Assembly (NCBI GenBank): GCA_048939995.1
Contig: JBHLOY010000001.1
Span: forward strand, 288,001-352,000
Source of the DNA: Promethearchaeota archaeon
Lineage (GTDB): Archaea; Asgardarchaeota; Lokiarchaeia; Sigyniarchaeales; SOKP01
Reading direction: 5' to 3'
Length of the DNA: 64,000 nt
Shown: piece after piece, positions 51,736 through 64,000 of the stretch
How positions within the stretch are numbered: position 1 is the first letter of the stretch
Layout: every line of letters begins with the position of its first letter
Program-made: the position numbers and the translations under genes
The notes under the pieces: model-generated
Databases searched by the model: none
What the model was told of the DNA's origin: nothing
The model's input: only the letters and a program-made list of their open reading frames with translations

Positions 51736-54700
51736 ATGGGATCCAATGAGAAGAAAAAATCTAGTGAGAGAATTGAACGTGCAACTACCTTTCTTACGAA
51801 ACTTTGGTGGTTTTTTGCTTTTTTAATAGGAATTCCAGTAACTATTTCCACTATTAGTTTCTATATTTTCAACTTCATTATAAGAGATATTTATATCTCT
51901 ATTGGACTTTCAGTGGTTGTCTATTTATTCGCCATTTTCATTTTTTATAAAAGTTTTGACCAATACAGAAATAGTCCTTTCTTTCTTAATAATAAAAACA
52001 ATTTTAGCGCCAGAATTCACACATTTTATATAATTAGTAGCCTTGCTTTAATAGTTACTCCTATATTTGTTTATATAACTCCTGAGGGATATTATTTTGA
52101 ATTACTTCCTTTAATTTCTTATTGTATTTTATATAATATCATTTATTTTTATTATTTTTATAAGCCTATTGAAGATTATGATATCTCTGAATCAAGATTT
52201 AAAAGTGGAATAAGTTTTAAATCATCGTTGAAAGAGTTTCACAATGTAGTGGTTATATTAAATTACATAATTCATATTATTTTCTTAACCTATACCCATT
52301 ACACGAGATTATCATGGCTATTTGCTTTAATATCAAATATTGTTTTCTATATCTACACAATATTAACAACAAGAAATTTAAGGAAGAACTTTAGAATTGC
52401 TATTGACAAAGGGGAATCTATTCTTAACTATTTAATAAAATTTAAGAAAAAGTTCACAATATCGATTATTAGCCTGTGTTTTGTGCTCTTAATTCAATTA
52501 CCATTTGATTTTTATCTAATAAATACCCTATCTGGTGCCATCTATACCTATTTTGATTATATTATGATCATATTCTATTCAATGATCTTCTTCTTTTTAT
52601 ACTTGAAACTACGGATATATGCCTCAATATATTACGAGAAGGAAGTCTTTAAATTATCTAATCAGGGAATGAATGAATCAAATGAAGATTCTTCAAGAAT
52701 TTTAATGAAATATCAAAAATGGAATATGATAATATCTCTGTTTTTCAGTATTTTCGTGCTTTTATTTTCATTAGGGATCAATTTTCCGGTAATAATCATT
52801 ATTTCCTTGCCAGCTATTATTATAGCAACGTATTATGAACAAAAGGCTAACTTTTGCCCAAAGAGATATAGTCGTTATATATTTTTATTCAATAGTATTA
52901 TTATATTAAGTTCAATATTATTTTTAGGAGTTTTTTATCTCGAACTTCAAATAATTCTATTTCTCCTAAGTATCTATTTGGATTTACAAATTTTTTCTCA
53001 TTATAAGTATTTTGATAAAAATAAAATCATTTTGACCCAACATTTAATAGCTTTCATATGCTTCTTAGTAATTTCTCAATTATTTTATCCTTTCATTTCA
53101 TTAATCTATTTAGGGTTAGCTATTGACCCTTTTTTGTTAAATCTTATAAATATCTTAATCTATATATTATTAGTAAGTTTAGCATTATTAGGTACCTTCT
53201 ATTATTTATATTTCCGTTACTTTAGAAAAAGTAAATGGAAGAATTTTAGTCTAATTCTAAATATTGTTATCTTTTTAATCGAAATTCTTTCATTTGCTCT
53301 TATAAATTTATATAGTATTTTTTCTGTAGAATTTAATGTATATATTAATTATGTTATAATAAGTGCTATTTTTCTACCAATAATTTTTGATTTGTTTATT
53401 GGGCTTAACTATCTCCTTGGAATCACATCTAAAAAAATTTCTTTGAAGGAATTATACTACTCATGTTGGATTTTAATTTTAACAATATTTAGTACCCTAC
53501 TTTATTTTTCCCTAAATAATTACATGTTCCTAATAGCCGATTTATTATATCTCTCTATTTTTTCCCTGATTTTACTTAAATTTGGAGTGAAAATTGAGCA
53601 AGTAAATATTAAGATCTTCAAAAAAATTGTGAGTCTTAACTCAATTTTTATCCTTATAGAGCTTTATTGCTTAACATTCTCAATTATTTTTTCGAATCTT
53701 ATTTTTTTAGAAATTTCACATAACCTTTTGCTTTCTTCTTATTTCTCATTGGTTTCAATCGCAATTTTAATAAATATATTCCTAAGGAAGATTATTTCAA
53801 TGGTAATAATAAAAATGATTAATTTGGTTAGTTTACTGTTTTCTACAGGAATAATTTTTTACAATTTATACGCTTATACTCTTGGATCTTATTTTGTTAT
53901 TATTATTCCGATTTTATCTTCATGCCTTTTCTTTTATATTTTCATTTTTTATCTTAAATCATTAATACATGGGTTTTTACCAAAAAACCTTTTTTTAATA
54001 AATACAATAATCATATTCATCTCCTTATCTCTTATACCGTCATTCTATGCATTAGAAAGCATTAAGTTAGGATTAACTGTTGATTTTGTTACAGTATTTA
54101 ATTCAACCCTTTACATTATTCTTGGAATATTGTTTTTTATCACTGTTTTCTCGCCACAATTTAAAATTAGAGAAGGAAGGAAGCGATTTGTACTATTTAC
54201 GCTGATTCTTCTTCTGTTCATTTTAGCGGGAACCACAGTTTTTTATTATTCAAATCTATTTTTATATACTACTTTGTTTGGAGAAACAGTTCCTTTAATC
54301 GCAAGCTCAGCTTTTCTTTTCGTTCCTTTAATATTACTATATAAGTATCAATTTATTAAAATTAAAACTAGTAAAATCCTTATCCTTTTAAACTATCTTT
54401 TTCTCTGGGGAGCGCTAATATCTATTCCAATTGTTTTTTGCTTAGAATTTATAAGATTAGGTAATTTTATTCAAACTTATCTCATGGTAACATTATTAGT
54501 TGTAATATTTTATGGGTTTTTAAAATCTCTATCCCCCATATCACAATCGCTTGAATTTAGAGCATCTTTTGATTATAAAATACGAATAATGCAAATATGC
54601 ATTTGGTTTTGTATTGCAGTCTTGATCTCATTAATTATTCCTTTTTTCTTTTTATTCCAACAATATTATTGGTTAAATCTATTTACAATAAGTTGTACAC

Positions 54701-57700
54701 TAATTCTTTTTTTCATCCTGAATATAGCAAATCTACCTCAATTAGAGAGTTTCAAGCAAAAAGTCTTTGAAAACAAAAGAAGCAAATTAGATTTTTATAA
54801 AATTTACAAAATTTATGAATATTATAAAAATATTATTTATTTTGGACTAATTTTTTCAATATCTTTCTTTTTTTACTCAATCTTCCAAGCTTTCAATCTT
54901 GTTTATATAATTTTTCAATCAACTGATAGCTTATTAACGGGTTCTTTTAACCTAGTAATTTTTTTGATATTTACTTTATTACTCTTACATTTTACAAGTA
55001 AGATAATTAGATTAGAATTTGTTAAAACAAGAGATATAATTGAATTAATAATTTGGTTAACTATAAAATTCAGTATTTTATTGTTCCTCTCTTTATTGCC
55101 CATTCAAATTTCAATTTCTAATAGAATTTTTCTAATAATCCTAGCGTTTGCTATTCAAAGCCCAATTACCATTAACTATCTCGATAAACATATGATGTTT
55201 TTAGAAAATACTAAGCTACTCATGAATAGAGTTATAGGATTTTTGTTTTTTGTAGCAGCTTTAGGGTTTATTATGGAAAATCTATGGAGTGTTAATATTA
55301 GTATATTATACTTTAATCAAAATATTCCAATTTTTATTGGCTTTCTTATATGTTTAATTTTTACATTTTTTAATTATTACATTATACATTTTAATGAAAT
55401 TATCCAAAAAGGAGGGAGATTTAGAATATACAGATTGTATCTAATCTCCTTTCTGTTATTAGTTCTATTTCTATTGATGAATATTCAATTTATTCTAATA
55501 TTTTTATTTGGTGTTCTTGTTATACTTCTTCGAAACAAGAATAGAAATTTTATATGGCATCTAATCAATTATTTCGTAATTAGTTTTCTTTGTTTAATTG
55601 AATTAAATCTTTTTATAATAAAATTTAATCTTCTTCCTTTTACTTATATCCACCCAGGAATTTTTGCTTGGATATATTTTATATCCTTTATTTCTATTTT
55701 ATTTATTTCAATTATTCTTAATTTTAAAAGAATCAATATTCTTGAGGAATTATTATTGGATTTTTTAATTCCTTGTTTAATTTTTACCTCGATTTTAATT
55801 TTCTTTCCGATTCCTATTTTTTATAACATCACAATTTCTATTACTATTCTACTATTTTTAATAAGCTTATTCTTTTATCGCAAAAAAGATGACATATATA
55901 TTTGGTTTATACGTCCATGCGCCTTATTATTTCTCTTTAACCTAATAAGTATTGGCTCTTATTTCATAATATTTAGTTTACCCATCTATCTTGAATACAA
56001 TCTGATATTAAGTTCCACCCTAACTTTTAGTATTATAGGTTTTTGCTTTGCTTTATTTTATCATAATTTAGAAAAGAAATTTAAAAGTAAAGTAATATCA
56101 ATTGTTCTCATCTTAAGTGTCATCAGTTCCTTTATATTTTCTTACCTAATCATAGAAATATCATTTACATTAGCTTTTATTTTTCCATGGTTGATTGCTG
56201 GAAATATGGCTATCATCTTATTATATATCTCCATTGGAATTTATCAATGGAAAATATCATGGGCAATTTGGAAATCAGGGTATTGGATTTGGATATTTGT
56301 TCCGATCGTTAATTATCTTTTAATCGCTCAATCATTCGCAGGAATTGATGTTTATACAAATGCTCTAAATTTATTTGGTTTAAACATTTATGGTTCGTAT
56401 TTAATAACGTTTGTCATTTGTTTATTATTATCATTACCCTTCTGGTATACATGGATTAAAGACCACTTTAATGTAGTTTTGTTTACGATTTGGGGTTTTA
56501 GTTTGTTTTTAATATTTTGGTTTAGTCAAAATGCTTTCTTTGGATTTGATATATTAATTATTTTATCATTTCTGGGAATTGCTATAATATTCCTTATGCC
56601 AATTTTTTATAGATTAGGTTTTTGGAAAATTCTATCTATTCTTTGGCTAATATTCACTTCACTTCTAACCATTTTTATAACATTCATTTTTGTTGGAATT
56701 AATTTCCCTTTAAACCAGATTATTCCATTTGATTTAGTCGTGGTTGGATTTCTTTTCATAGTATTTTCCTTTTTTCCAAATTTGAAAGCTATGAAATACA
56801 TAATATTGATTACAGCTTACTCCGTAGCCATGATTGGTATTTTTTGGATACTATATATCCTTATGGTTTCAATAACCTATAATATTCCTGTATCAATCAA
56901 TATCTCTTTCATTATAATTGGTTTTAGTCTATTTAGTTCACGTATATTGAAATTAAATAAAAAATTATTCAATTTTCTAATTTCTACAATGTTAACTGTG
57001 AATTTTTCACTTTTAACATTCTTCACTTTTATCATGATCCCTCATTTTGAATTTTTCGCGTTATTTTTAGCTATAACTGTTTGTGGAGGATCTCTTCTTG
57101 TATTTAATCGATTTCGAATGTTTTCTCCGATTAAAATGATCATTCCTTTATCTATCTTATCTATGGGAATATCCTTAACATTCTCTACTTTAATCTATAT
57201 TTTTCTACCAAATTCTTTTTTCCTTATATCTGCTGCGTTCATTTCGATAATTTTATTGATTAATTATCCCGTTTTAAAATATATTCGCCACATTTTATGG
57301 TATTCTGTTCCTTTGCCTTTTTGTTTGTTTATTTTGCACTTTTTATCATTACTAGGGCCGTTCCAATCAATATTTAATTTAACCTTGGTTGGATTGATTT
57401 TATATACCTCGATATTTCAAATACTTACGAATTTATTTTATGGTAAAGCCAGGAGTATAAATCTTTTAGCTTTTGTTTTAAATTCTACCTATATATCCCT
57501 ATTTATTGCTATTCTCAGTCCCTTATTTATCGTCTATAAGATTCTTGAATTTTTTATAATTTGGTCAATTTTGATTTTATTATGTATTAGATATATAGAG
57601 AAGGGGGGTCAAGAACTTCTCAAAAATAAGGCAATTACCATTTTACTTAAAATTAGTAGTTATATAGCATTATTCCTCTACCTTGAAATTTCTCTTCTAA

Positions 57701-60216
57701 TTACAGGTATATTAAATGAATTTATAGTGCCTGAATTCACGAGTAGTGTTTTGATTTTTTTTGGAACCTTACTTTTATTATCATTACTAGATATTTTCCT
57801 TATTAAGAAAGTTAGTAGCAAGTTAGTTTATCCAATTAATGTGATTTGCTACATTTTAATTTCAATTTATTTATTTATATTTCTAAATCGCTTTTTAGCT
57901 ATAGATATACAATTTATTTTCTTAAATCTAATCATATTATTGGCGATGCAATTTTATACCATAAAAATCATATTTTCTCTTCTAAATCAATTAGAACGTT
58001 ATGATAGAGAGAAGTTAACCTCTTTACAAAAGATTTTTCAAACGATTTTACTTAATACTATATTCGTTGTTATTAGTTTATTTGGATCATCTTATTTCAC
58101 ATCAATATTCCTAAATGTTTCACCATTGCTTAGTGGATTCTCTGCTATTTTCTTGTTTCTAATGATTTTTAGTTTTCTAATGTTTAATCTGAATCAGTTA
58201 GTAAAGATTAGGTTTAAGCTAAAGGTGTTATTTGTTTATTATCTAATATTTATAGTAAGTTTTGTTTCATTTTTTACCTCTTATATTATGATTTTCAATC
58301 TTATTACTATCTTATATCTGAGTCTATTTTCTCTTATTATCACTAGTTTGTTATCTTACTTTATCTCCTTGCTAAACAAAATATATATAGAAAAATTAGG
58401 GACTGAGATGATAAAGAAAGTTTATTCATTTTTACAATTTATTCTTTACTTAGAAATTTCATTGATTTTCTATAGTCAATTTTCCGTTTATTTCAATATA
58501 TTCGAAAGTATATTAACGTCTCAAATAGTCCTAAGTTTAATTTCCTTAATCGAATTAAAATTTATAAAAAAAGTAAAAGCCTCCTATGTTCTTCTTATTC
58601 ACACGATTAGCTTTTTTAACATTAGTTGGGCTCTATACGTTATTATATTTCAATTTACTTACAATTATTTTAATTTAAATATCATTTTCTTCATTTTAAT
58701 GCAATTTTATACGAATCACCTATACTTTATTACTAAAGCTGAATTTAATCCAACAAAAAAACCTAATTTTAAGAAATGGAAATTAATTAGACAAAAAATA
58801 ATTGGATCTTGTTTCTACCTTGCTTTATTAGTATATATTGTGCAGTATTTAATTCTATTTATTCCTGATATTCTGCTAGTAGTTTTAATCTCAAGTATAT
58901 TACTTCATGGTTTAATGTATTTAGATAAATATGTGTCTAAATTTTTAGCTACCTGGTCAAAATATCTAATTATATTTTCTGGGATCTTAATTATAGGTGT
59001 TTCTATTTTGTATTCGTTGAATTGGATCTTAACTATTTCTATACAAATCATTCCTATAACAATACTCATAGTTTTACTTGAAGTAACCTATTTGATAAGA
59101 TTATTACATCTGTGGAATATTTTAAAAAGTGAGTTTGCTAAGAATCGAAATTACCTCATTATCTTATTCTATTTAGATATCATAACTTGGCCTCTTTTTT
59201 ATTTAAACTTGCAAATTTATAATTTTCTGAATATCTTGTTGATATTTTTTATAATATTAATAATAATTTCTCTGATTGATATTCGGATAAAAGCCATTAA
59301 ACCGAGTCTAAGAAGAACAATCTTTAAGGTTGGTTATACAATTTTTGATATAATATTATCAATACAGATATATACGTTATTAGAATACATAATTCAACCA
59401 AACTTACCATTAAATCTTTCAATAGCAGGTCTAGTATTTATTATAGTAATTGGTTTTTTAATAAAGCCTTTTAAAAAGCGTAGACTTATTTCATTCTTTT
59501 ACTGGTTCTTTATATATCTATTCATTAGCCTTATCATTTTTTACGCCTATTTGAATCTTTGGAGTTTTACAGTAGTTGTATTTGGAATACTATTATATCC
59601 GTTTATTTTCATGCTTGAGGAGTTGAGAGAATTATTTAATCATTTCTTAGATTATCTTCAGAAGCTTATAATCAAAATTAAATATATCATAATAGCTGGT
59701 TATAAAAAATTGATTAAATTCATTAAAGACAACTTCAAGATAGTCCGAATTTTAATTTGTATAATCTTTGGAATAATGATGGGTTTTATCTTTTCTGAGT
59801 TTGTTTTAGTCATTTTAAATCTATATCACTCAATTCTGTTAGCAATAGCTTCTTTTGGGATTATTTATGCTTTTACTGACTATTTATGGTACTTTTTTTA
59901 CGTCAAAAAGCTTGGAGATGTAAGACAAATATTCAGACAAAAGTTAAAGATATTTATAATTATTTGGATTAGCTTCTCCGTCTTTATATTTACATTAATA
60001 CTACCCTATGTTGGTTCTGTCCTTTATTCATTATTTCTTATCTTAATACCATTTTGGGGTTTAGGATCAATTTTAATCTGGGTGGTTAATCGAAAAGAGG
60101 CTAAACAAAAAATTTCGGTAAAAACTAGGTTCTTTATAACCTTGTCTACAATAGTAATATTTGTTATTTGGGTAACAGTTATTCTAATTTGGTACTTTTT
60201 TGAAATTCGTGTTTAA
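51736..60216 (+). CDS. Giant polytopic membrane protein of unknown function (2826 aa)
   Basis: 8.5-kb stop-free frame in AT-rich DNA; continuous TM segments with Lys-rich loops. Confidence 0.88.
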   Translation: MGSNEKKKSSERIERATTFLTKLWWFFAFLIGIPVTISTISFYIFNFIIRDIYISIGLSVVVYLFAIFIFYKSFDQYRNSPFFLNNKNNFSARIHTFYIISSLALIVTPIFVYITPEGYYFELLPLISYCILYNIIYFYYFYKPIEDYDISESRFKSGISFKSSLKEFHNVVVILNYIIHIIFLTYTHYTRLSWLFALISNIVFYIYTILTTRNLRKNFRIAIDKGESILNYLIKFKKKFTISIISLCFVLLIQLPFDFYLINTLSGAIYTYFDYIMIIFYSMIFFFLYLKLRIYASIYYEKEVFKLSNQGMNESNEDSSRILMKYQKWNMIISLFFSIFVLLFSLGINFPVIIIISLPAIIIATYYEQKANFCPKRYSRYIFLFNSIIILSSILFLGVFYLELQIILFLLSIYLDLQIFSHYKYFDKNKIILTQHLIAFICFLVISQLFYPFISLIYLGLAIDPFLLNLINILIYILLVSLALLGTFYYLYFRYFRKSKWKNFSLILNIVIFLIEILSFALINLYSIFSVEFNVYINYVIISAIFLPIIFDLFIGLNYLLGITSKKISLKELYYSCWILILTIFSTLLYFSLNNYMFLIADLLYLSIFSLILLKFGVKIEQVNIKIFKKIVSLNSIFILIELYCLTFSIIFSNLIFLEISHNLLLSSYFSLVSIAILINIFLRKIISMVIIKMINLVSLLFSTGIIFYNLYAYTLGSYFVIIIPILSSCLFFYIFIFYLKSLIHGFLPKNLFLINTIIIFISLSLIPSFYALESIKLGLTVDFVTVFNSTLYIILGILFFITVFSPQFKIREGRKRFVLFTLILLLFILAGTTVFYYSNLFLYTTLFGETVPLIASSAFLFVPLILLYKYQFIKIKTSKILILLNYLFLWGALISIPIVFCLEFIRLGNFIQTYLMVTLLVVIFYGFLKSLSPISQSLEFRASFDYKIRIMQICIWFCIAVLISLIIPFFFLFQQYYWLNLFTISCTLILFFILNIANLPQLESFKQKVFENKRSKLDFYKIYKIYEYYKNIIYFGLIFSISFFFYSIFQAFNLVYIIFQSTDSLLTGSFNLVIFLIFTLLLLHFTSKIIRLEFVKTRDIIELIIWLTIKFSILLFLSLLPIQISISNRIFLIILAFAIQSPITINYLDKHMMFLENTKLLMNRVIGFLFFVAALGFIMENLWSVNISILYFNQNIPIFIGFLICLIFTFFNYYIIHFNEIIQKGGRFRIYRLYLISFLLLVLFLLMNIQFILIFLFGVLVILLRNKNRNFIWHLINYFVISFLCLIELNLFIIKFNLLPFTYIHPGIFAWIYFISFISILFISIILNFKRINILEELLLDFLIPCLIFTSILIFFPIPIFYNITISITILLFLISLFFYRKKDDIYIWFIRPCALLFLFNLISIGSYFIIFSLPIYLEYNLILSSTLTFSIIGFCFALFYHNLEKKFKSKVISIVLILSVISSFIFSYLIIEISFTLAFIFPWLIAGNMAIILLYISIGIYQWKISWAIWKSGYWIWIFVPIVNYLLIAQSFAGIDVYTNALNLFGLNIYGSYLITFVICLLLSLPFWYTWIKDHFNVVLFTIWGFSLFLIFWFSQNAFFGFDILIILSFLGIAIIFLMPIFYRLGFWKILSILWLIFTSLLTIFITFIFVGINFPLNQIIPFDLVVVGFLFIVFSFFPNLKAMKYIILITAYSVAMIGIFWILYILMVSITYNIPVSINISFIIIGFSLFSSRILKLNKKLFNFLISTMLTVNFSLLTFFTFIMIPHFEFFALFLAITVCGGSLLVFNRFRMFSPIKMIIPLSILSMGISLTFSTLIYIFLPNSFFLISAAFISIILLINYPVLKYIRHILWYSVPLPFCLFILHFLSLLGPFQSIFNLTLVGLILYTSIFQILTNLFYGKARSINLLAFVLNSTYISLFIAILSPLFIVYKILEFFIIWSILILLCIRYIEKGGQELLKNKAITILLKISSYIALFLYLEISLLITGILNEFIVPEFTSSVLIFFGTLLLLSLLDIFLIKKVSSKLVYPINVICYILISIYLFIFLNRFLAIDIQFIFLNLIILLAMQFYTIKIIFSLLNQLERYDREKLTSLQKIFQTILLNTIFVVISLFGSSYFTSIFLNVSPLLSGFSAIFLFLMIFSFLMFNLNQLVKIRFKLKVLFVYYLIFIVSFVSFFTSYIMIFNLITILYLSLFSLIITSLLSYFISLLNKIYIEKLGTEMIKKVYSFLQFILYLEISLIFYSQFSVYFNIFESILTSQIVLSLISLIELKFIKKVKASYVLLIHTISFFNISWALYVIIFQFTYNYFNLNIIFFILMQFYTNHLYFITKAEFNPTKKPNFKKWKLIRQKIIGSCFYLALLVYIVQYLILFIPDILLVVLISSILLHGLMYLDKYVSKFLATWSKYLIIFSGILIIGVSILYSLNWILTISIQIIPITILIVLLEVTYLIRLLHLWNILKSEFAKNRNYLIILFYLDIITWPLFYLNLQIYNFLNILLIFFIILIIISLIDIRIKAIKPSLRRTIFKVGYTIFDIILSIQIYTLLEYIIQPNLPLNLSIAGLVFIIVIGFLIKPFKKRRLISFFYWFFIYLFISLIIFYAYLNLWSFTVVVFGILLYPFIFMLEELRELFNHFLDYLQKLIIKIKYIIIAGYKKLIKFIKDNFKIVRILICIIFGIMMGFIFSEFVLVILNLYHSILLAIASFGIIYAFTDYLWYFFYVKKLGDVRQIFRQKLKIFIIIWISFSVFIFTLILPYVGSVLYSLFLILIPFWGLGSILIWVVNRKEAKQKISVKTRFFITLSTIVIFVIWVTVILIWYFFEIRV

Positions 60217-62463: not shown

Positions 62464-63087
62464 ATGACGGTAAAAATAGATTTCAAGAAATCAATGAAAG
62501 AGTTATATCAACCAAGTGCGAAAGAGCCCGTATTGATTCATGTACCAGAAATGCAATTCATAATGATAGAAGGCAAGGGATCTCCAGGCGATTCACAACA
62601 ATATAGTGATGCGATTGGAACGCTATATCCAATAGCATATAAGTTAAAATTCTTAAGTAAAGGGAAGAGTAAAGATTATGTAGTTCCTCCACTTGAAGGT
62701 TTATGGTGGGCTGATGACATGAAAGATTTTATAGAAGGAAATAGGGACAAGTGGAAATGGACAATGATGATTATGACTCCCAAGTGGGTGACCTCGCGAA
62801 TGTATGAGGAAGCAAAGAGATTCGCGTTAGCGAAGAAGTCTGAACTTAAAGAAAGTATTACCAAGGTACGACTTGAGAAATATCATGAAGGTAAATCTGC
62901 ACAAATTATGCACATTGGACCATATTCAGAAGAACATCATACAATTATGAAACTACATAATTATATCAAGGAGCAGGGAGGCAATTTTGATGGTTATAAA
63001 CATAAGCATCATGAAATTTATCTTAGCGATCCAAGAAAGGCTAATCCGGCAACAATGAAAACTATAATAAGACAACCTTTTGAATAA
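62464..63087 (+). CDS. GyrI-like small-molecule-binding domain protein
   Basis: DYVVPPLEGLWW, W.WTMMI, AQIMHIGPYSEE, HHEIYLSDPR, TIIRQP. Confidence 0.9.
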   Translation: MTVKIDFKKSMKELYQPSAKEPVLIHVPEMQFIMIEGKGSPGDSQQYSDAIGTLYPIAYKLKFLSKGKSKDYVVPPLEGLWWADDMKDFIEGNRDKWKWTMMIMTPKWVTSRMYEEAKRFALAKKSELKESITKVRLEKYHEGKSAQIMHIGPYSEEHHTIMKLHNYIKEQGGNFDGYKHKHHEIYLSDPRKANPATMKTIIRQPFE

Positions 63088-63214
63088 ATTTTCTTCTAAA
63101 TTTATCTTATTTTTATTTTTGCAAAATTTTAAACTTCAATTTTACTATTAACTTAAGAAAATAAGAATAGACTCAATTTTTATATGAAATGAGTTCATGA
63201 GAGAGAATTTTAAA

Positions 63215-63601
63215 AGGTGAAAAGGTTTCGAGAAGCTGCAATGACTATCAAAAGGTTTTCCGGACAGCCAAAAGATTATCATTGCGTAGTAATGCTTCCG
63301 TTCCTAGGTCTGGAAATCTCTATGCATGATCGATTTATTAAGTTATGTTGCGTTATGAAAAGAATCTTCATTCATAAGCATAATTGCTTATACCTGTGAA
63401 CGTTCTTATCGTTTGATAATTTTACCAATTCGTTAGAATCGGCAAGATTGAACGTCAAATACAAACTGGAAAGCTTGCATCTTAAGTCCTGATTATGCTT
63501 TTTACACACAACCTCTTTTCATATTGCTATTAACTTTTTTTAGTACCAATGCATTGAGGTTACATTACTGCTTCTCGATGTTCACAGCATTTGATATGAA
63601 C
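63215..63601 (-). ncRNA. Candidate large structured non-coding RNA (~385 nt), family not recognised
   Basis: End-to-end helix, at least 8 further helices with minus-strand G-U pairs, TATA box ~30 nt upstream, U-tracts downstream. Confidence 0.65.
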
Positions 63602-63728
63602 AAGTATTAGTGTGATAAATTTATATTTAAATAAATCTATTAAGGGGTTATTAGTTTACCAACTATATTTGGAAAAATAGGTTTTTTAGTCGACTTATCA
63701 TTCATAGTTAACATTTTCATTAAAATTT

Positions 63729-64000
63729 TTAACCAATAAAACAAGATAAATCTCTTTGAGAAGATTTTTTCCAGTAATCTCGTTTGAGCACTTCTTCAAG
63801 TTCAGGAAATTCGAACGGAAATATATTTTCGAAGGCTCTTTTTAATAGTTCAATATATTTTTTCTTATCGTAGTGATGTATCCGTTTATTATAAAGATCA
63901 GAGATAATAACCTTTCGATCGGGAAAATCTGGGTCGGCATTGGCATTAAGAATTATATACTTTACATTCTTTCCAGGTGTTACTATAGAACCAGATTCTT
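63729..64000 (-). CDS. C-terminus of a family B DNA polymerase (PolB2-like), partial
   Basis: Not in ORF track; ...VTPGKNVKYIILN...HYDKKKYIELLKRAFENIF...SQRDLSCFIG* matches a PolB thumb end plus PIP-like tail. Confidence 0.7.
   Translation of the reverse strand, partial: ESGSIVTPGKNVKYIILNANADPDFPDRKVIISDLYNKRIHHYDKKKYIELLKRAFENIFPFEFPELEEVLKRDYWKKSSQRDLSCFIG

Follow-up and report, generated by a model that had tools for sequence, protein, structure and literature searches.

The window analysed here is the whole stretch of 64,000 nt from a contig of a Promethearchaeota archaeon. Close to its right-hand end the minus strand carries a structured RNA gene of about 380 nt (63603-63221), which fills a minus-strand gap free of open reading frames; on one side of this gap an 800-aa PolB gene ends (63729), and on the other a GyrI-like gene runs convergently. 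Upstream of the RNA lies a cassette of a RadA-like gene, a 90-aa partner and PolB2. The complete cassette, which is located just to the right of the window (L033:11729-15799), comprises a RadA/Rad51-like gene, DUF3795, the 90-aa partner and PolB2, and motif C of PolB2 at this locus reads GIVDS. The window also codes on the plus strand (51736-60216) for a very hydrophobic multi-pass membrane protein of 2,826 aa. A 60-aa reading frame runs over the RNA on the plus strand; no reading frame within the RNA is kept family-wide, and the small ones on the minus strand are not kept across homologues. The RNA gene is present in one copy in the source genome, which is 98% complete.

A preliminary description made from the letters alone had proposed a highly structured RNA at this position, and its motifs were all found in place. 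The minus strand folds with -116.7 kcal/mol, compared with -76.3 +/- 5.0 kcal/mol in dinucleotide-shuffled controls (z -8.17), so that the expected excess of folding energy was indeed obtained. Two homologues fold comparably well (z -9.7 and -7.2), and in 21 of 21 tested homologues the RNA strand folds better than its complement. The features of the gene and its surroundings are listed in Table 1.

Table 1. Coordinates of the RNA gene, its promoter elements, its helices and the flanking genes in the window.
Feature	Position	Strand	Remarks
ncRNA gene	63221..63603	-	about 380 nt; G63601 is the predicted start, judged by the distance to TATA
polB2 3' end (context)	63729..64000	-	800 aa; runs on beyond the window
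Convergent GyrI-like gene (context)	62464..63087	+	
Distal promoter box CGAC-N2-AAAA	63682..63692	-	at about -90
Pseudo-palindrome TAAYAA-N4-TTAAYAG	63637..63653	-	conserved, just upstream of TATA; putative activator site
TATA box	63624..63631	-	begins 28 nt ahead of the conserved 5' end in homologues
H0, 5' hairpin	63579..63602	-	covaries; absent in two homologues, extended in one clade
P1 5' strand	63571..63578	-	GAGAAG nearly invariant
P2 5' strand	63563..63569	-	98% paired; both partners replaced in 3 of 7 pairs
P3 5' arm	63514..63558	-	interrupted stem toward the cloverleaf; holds the CAAUGCAUUG palindrome
H1 hairpin	63491..63513	-	type A cloverleaf only
H2 long hairpin, internal loop	63450..63489	-	strongest covarying pair of type A
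H3 hairpin	63422..63445	-	5 pairs changed on both sides
H4 hairpin	63406..63419	-	
H5 long hairpin, internal loop	63364..63405	-	
P3 3' arm	63318..63363	-	
P4 hairpin	63296..63315	-	variable; missing in one homologue
P2 3' strand	63288..63294	-	
P5 3' hairpin	63238..63285	-	closed by GCAAUGA/UCAUUGC; longer in the window's clade
P1 3' strand	63228..63235	-	100% paired
3' tail N(1-3)CC + U-tracts	63212..63227	-	putative archaeal terminator
U-tracts, confirmed	63223-63220 and 63215-63212	-	

From 5' to 3' the fold consists of H0, P1, P2, P3 with the H1-H5 junction, P4, the return of P2, P5, the return of P1 and finally CC with the U-tract. P1, which closes the ends, P2 and the 3' hairpin P5 meet in a three-way junction and form a fixed core, and an exchangeable cloverleaf of four to five hairpins sits on P3. 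RNAalifold, applied to 22 homologues of the window's class, gave 73 pairs, 21 of which changed on both sides. Using a hand-set structure of 87 pairs, 93.4% of the cells were paired over 22 homologues and 23 pairs had changed on both sides, compared with 35-45% of cells paired in a control with the partners slid. Because these counts were not tree-corrected and the hand-set structure was derived from one member, they support the fold but do not prove each helix. Sequence invariance is concentrated within the paired P1 and P2, more than pairing demands, which suggests contact with a protein or a tertiary contact of these bases. The loops are interchangeable stable tetraloops (UUCG, GNRA, UAAC), the junction linkers differ in length and sequence among homologues, and no conserved single-stranded guide is present in the homologue alignment.

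Several of the helices first proposed were recovered where they had been drawn: the 5' hairpin (63601-63580), which covaries in homologues, the helix of 63523-63514 with 63363-63354, and the hairpin 63445-63422, which is H3. The helix thought to close the whole body had to be divided. Its outer part stands as P1 (63578-63571 with 63235-63228), but the extension GUAAUG/CAUUGC does not: GUAAUG (63568-63563) pairs with CAUUAC (63294-63289), and CAUUGC together with GCAAUG closes a separate 3' hairpin. Over 38 sequences the CAUUAC partner, which was chosen by best match, is paired in 96% of cells versus 68% for CAUUGC, and the alignment of the 22 homologues agrees; the extension is an accident of the window's clade. 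Three further proposed pairings (GACGUUC/GAACGUU, AACCUC/GAGGUU and GGCUGUC/GAUAGUC) are not kept in homologues. A pseudoknot between the loop of the 5' hairpin and the P2/P5 joint is no family-wide element either; it is complete in 9 of 66 sequences, has 3 of its 6 pairs here and competes with P2.

The TATA-like element recognised from the start proved to be conserved together with further upstream boxes. In 39 homologues from several different loci these boxes keep fixed offsets, with the TATA box at the distance given in Table 1, TTAAYA at -40 and CGAC boxes at -93 and -63. The second CGAC, 30 bp nearer in most homologues, is degenerate at the window locus. In three genomes an insertion of 11-13 nt, close to one turn of the helix, lies between the boxes; this suggests that proteins bind there in phase. 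The promoter scores 39 bits in the source genome and the next site 12, so that no second promoter-like site was detected there. As to expression, parts of the stretch occur in twenty RNA-library runs, in most cases only a small share of it. Four metatranscriptome studies contain contigs of 86-268 nt within 63236-63572, including 99-100% identical ones, and several related RNA variants occur per sample. These contigs give moderate support for transcription, although they carry no strand, ends or level, come from runs picked because they contain the stretch and may include DNA carry-over. Cover from the RNA libraries is absent on polB2 and the GyrI-like gene, and the libraries cannot rank expression.

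To classify the RNA, four variants were scanned against Rfam 15, a comparison proposed from the outset. The classes covered include OLE, GOLLD, ROOL, HEARO, 6S, tmRNA, introns and riboswitches; the best scores of 15-24 bits are far below the cut-offs, and no family matched. The model of archaeal SRP RNA (RF01857) does not match at the locus and finds the SRP RNA at C13:51784-52104 (E 1e-15). With 70.9 bits this SRP RNA stays below the Rfam cut-off of 96.5, and standard annotation would therefore miss it. The RNase P / MRP RNA model (RF00373) does not match the locus either; the RNase P RNA of the genome was identified at C7:131556-131880 (126.5 bits). The RNase P signature had already been reported missing, in agreement with the absence of the P4 pseudoknot, CR-I and CR-V from the homologue alignment. 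Since the SRP RNA and the RNase P RNA are encoded on other contigs, the RNA at the locus is an additional large RNA. ARAGORN detected no tmRNA in the genome. A Y RNA was rejected because Ro60/TROVE (PF05731) was not found in the 98% complete genome, with positive controls, and a retron or other RT-associated ncRNA because PF00078 was not found in the genome and no RT was recognised by eye among the flanking ORFs. An OMEGA/TnpB guide RNA (HEARO, reRNA) does not agree with two conserved and paired ends, nor with the lack of a nuclease among the flanking ORFs (by eye). Box C/D and H/ACA guides were discarded because conserved boxes are lacking and no other part of the genome is significantly complementary to the RNA (best E 0.07), and a riboswitch or cis-leader in view of the U-tract after P1 and of a next gene that is mostly convergent and differs between loci. 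Membership in CsrB/RsmZ is disfavoured by the absence of repeated GGA loops, the loops being of the UUCG, GNRA and UAAC types. No description of the RNA was found in the literature, most subscription papers lying outside our reach.

Homologues were first of all provided by BLAST, with five full-length relatives of 76-91% identity as well as partial ones of other lengths. A wider search of 135 genomes of the family with a promoter and 5' core model and with a whole-RNA profile extended the set to 60 genomes, and about 70 distinct sequences were collected in all. The RNA occurs in about 59 of the 135 genomes, which belong to one Promethearchaeia family, and almost all of the carriers fall into two genera: 21 of 41 others in the genus of the source genome and 37 of 54 in the second, compared with 1 of 6 in a third and 0 in ten more. 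One weak match was not confirmed. Nothing credible was found in 151 phylum-wide genomes outside the family, in searches that scored few candidates per genome and that diverged relatives may escape; two borderline matches (E 0.004-0.007) were dropped for want of the core. No RNA was found in three closed Loki genomes from a sister family either. When GTDB was scanned for an exact pattern, the matches were Promethearchaeota/Promethearchaeia records and two bacterial ones due to chance. A few matching records entered under Hodarchaeota or Hermodarchaeota consist of the very contigs that also occur in genomes of the RNA-bearing family. Metagenomes contained further members of the same family only, and non-Asgard pattern matches in GTDB and metagenomes were chance. 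The viral contigs gave 0 and 4 pattern matches, none of which scored with the profile. The RNA is confined to part of one family and is dispensable there.

The homologues fall into four length classes with a common core. On P3, type B (258-295 nt) bears four hairpins; type A (323-383 nt), the class of the window, bears five there and has a longer stem. In the nested class (664-668 nt) one core encloses an A domain, a B-like set and additional sets of hairpins, and the tandem class (729-742 nt) consists of three consecutive units, joined head to tail, under a single promoter. The units of the tandem class are 62-65% alike, and one 259-nt allele reads as unit 1 fused to the closing part of unit 3. 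Covariation is seen in the two long classes as well, with 28 (664 nt) and 35 (740 nt) pairs changed on both sides. The P1/P2/P5 junction, P3 and a cloverleaf are always retained, and the existence of two separate routes to more cloverleaves, tandem and nested, suggests selection for valency. In one case (L096:2128-2990) two complete RNA genes, each with its own promoter, follow polB2 at a distance of 512 bp from each other. One genome (L094 and L095) carries type B next to polB2 and, at another locus, a degenerate copy of type A; types A and B can therefore be paralogues. A three-unit allele on a 6.3-kb low-coverage contig is nearly identical to those of the other genus (L100 / L170), which is due either to horizontal transfer or to a binning error. 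Decayed or truncated copies exist as well (L093:5286-5579, L098, L101), one of them with a protein-coding gene over the 5' half.

Taken together, covariation, the conserved promoter and terminator, the lack of an Rfam match, the SRP and RNase P RNAs elsewhere and the metatranscriptome contigs bear out the initial proposal of a new large archaeal ncRNA with its own promoter. We have very little doubt that the locus is a real and uncatalogued gene that stands alone, with a promoter of its own and a U-tract terminator, and that its product is a stable RNA with a high degree of base pairing. The RNA family is new, its modular build is unusual, its range narrow and its function putative only.

A functional link to polB2 had been called speculative, and the distribution of the RNA does not show the two to be mutually required. 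The expected synteny holds in part: in about 26 of 59 genomes, from both main genera, the RNA comes immediately after polB2 or with a single gene in between, but at the other loci it adjoins unrelated genes, and no neighbour gene was found that accompanies it at every locus. PolB2 is present in 114 of 135 genomes, mostly without adjacent RNA, and in many genomes polB2 lies within about 20 nt of the next gene, so that the RNA site is empty. At three empty sites just after polB2 (L113, L114, L117) only the distal CGAC-A-tract box is left; empty sites and box remnants point to repeated loss of the RNA. PolB2-PPB2-iRadA is the published mutasome cassette, of which the cassette next to the RNA is an ordinary member, and the abstracts of the published work name no RNA component (PMC11791011, PMC4104785). 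The position after polB2 and the box remnants, which suggest an old location, would suit an RNA that serves the PolB2-PPB2-inactive RadA mutasome in a DNA-damage response, either as its cofactor or as a regulator induced along with it. We regard this role as quite unlikely, because five RNA-bearing genomes of 93-100% completeness have no PolB2 match, most PolB2 genomes lack an adjacent RNA and neither the PolB2 operon nor the radA-like gene was found to be preceded by the promoter boxes of the RNA. Co-occurrence does not place the RNA in the mutasome, and the RNA is not obligately tied to the cassette. Since RNA without PolB2 and, in five near-complete genomes, PolB2 without RNA both occur, the link is old synteny at most.

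The filled and empty sites at different loci, together with paralogues, tandem duplicates and decayed copies, could also be explained by a mobile RNA element (of the HEARO/omega-RNA, retron or SINE-like kind) that is selfish, non-autonomous and moved by a trans-acting enzyme. The patchy distribution and the decayed copies, which would also suit an element that is selfish or nearly neutral, count against the scaffold or decoy reading given below. A mobile element is nevertheless improbable: the source genome has a single copy and no detectable reverse transcriptase, no nuclease or transposase gene adjoins any copy read, neither end carries a variable guide and no real match exists in the viral contigs. 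Moreover, the external promoter travels along with the RNA and would be lost in retrotransposition. Invariant bases clustering at one junction, and a helix order loosely echoing that of RNase P/MRP (P1, P2, P19), would be compatible with a ribozyme or ligand-binding RNA having its active site at the P1/P2/P5 junction. The variable junction linkers argue against such an activity, as do the missing P4 pseudoknot and CR-I/CR-V in a genome with a true RNase P RNA elsewhere, and the lack of an expression platform and of a co-oriented downstream gene; the chances of this reading are slim. Protein-free self-assembly into homo-oligomers or cages, as known for bacterial OLE, ROOL and GOLLD, which oligomerise without protein (PMC12286853), would agree with a large, ornate, hairpin-rich and patchy RNA, and tandem tripling could covalently mimic an oligomer. 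We consider it unlikely, given that the RNA has no Rfam similarity to these classes and that no consistent covarying loop-loop run appears outside the secondary structure (32 and 19 sequences, low power). Dimerisation through CAAUGCAUUG, as suggested in the preliminary description, finds no backing in the homologues: only 10 of 39 of them have the palindrome in exact form, and it is buried in helix P3. That the stretch is no RNA at all, and instead a cluster of DNA palindromes or a decayed gene, is highly improbable. The plus strand also folds above chance (z -4.32, dinucleotide shuffles) and the contigs leave the strand of transcription unproven, but G-U pairs are frequent on one strand only, as had been noticed for the minus strand, and are accompanied by compensatory changes, tetraloops of the RNA type, promoter and terminator at fixed offsets and contigs from RNA libraries.

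The reading that we prefer, with a probability somewhat short of even, is that of a free-standing gene product acting as a multivalent protein-binding scaffold or decoy. An activator would bind the phased boxes upstream of TATA, so that the RNA is made conditionally. The RNA would work in trans by its shape and not by base pairing, the near-invariant P1/P2/P5 junction serving as a putative docking site for a protein and the cloverleaf adding further binding sites. Lineages might then raise the valency by tandem tripling or by nesting cloverleaves, as CsrB-type sponges multiply their protein-binding sites. A guide or antisense role is unlikely because the tetraloops are generic and no complementarity was found, and a role in cis is unlikely because the RNA is not regularly followed by a gene in the same orientation; most of the genes downstream are convergent, leaving no cis target. 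With guide, cis and coding roles discounted, we infer that action by shape remains. A short repeated binding motif like that of CsrB was not found in the RNA. The missing GGA repeat lowers the case for CsrB/RsmZ membership, not for the working analogy.

To our knowledge, large structured RNAs of archaea beyond rRNA, RNase P, SRP and introns are rare, and large ornate RNAs of bacteria have yielded new structures. The RNA described here comes from the lineage closest to eukaryotes. About 70 aligned homologues, a fold backed by covariation and environmental RNA support are available, as are natural variants whose deletions and multiplications delimit a minimal core, and the RNA can be made by in vitro transcription, which renders structure, oligomer state, catalysis and partners directly testable. 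In its most specific form the scaffold reading, which we hold to be rather doubtful, describes a modular Asgard RNA with a constant docking core, interchangeable and multipliable cloverleaves and a dedicated activator, which would organise or titrate an RNP, possibly in stress or DNA-damage control. If true, it would be an archaeal parallel to the scaffold ncRNAs of eukaryotes.

Compared with known systems, the Asgard RNA resembles CsrB/RsmZ in being transcribed on its own behind a probable activator site, in its many hairpins and in valency by repetition. Unlike these sponges it is almost fully paired, has a long-range core and lacks the repeated GGA loop. Y RNA and Ro60 are tied to DNA-damage responses in some bacteria. 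The end-closing stem, a variable domain and a U-rich tail are reminiscent of Y RNA; in contrast to Y RNA, the Asgard RNA has no bulged-C Ro site and is much larger. RNase P and SRP RNAs are similar in size and in a terminal helix joining the ends, and the P1-P2-P19 junction order of RNase P is comparable; the Asgard RNA differs in that it has no catalytic P4 and no helix 8 motif and is dispensable and lineage-restricted. With OLE, ROOL and GOLLD it shares no sequence or model match, and it is distinguished from them by its archaeal TATA promoter and its one-unit, three-unit or nested build; no kissing-loop signal was found in it, and it was not found in viral contigs. In their general architecture, however, the Asgard RNA and these three bacterial RNAs, the functions of which are still unresolved, are alike: all are stand-alone, several hundred bases long, built around many multi-way junctions and patchy in distribution (PMC12286853).
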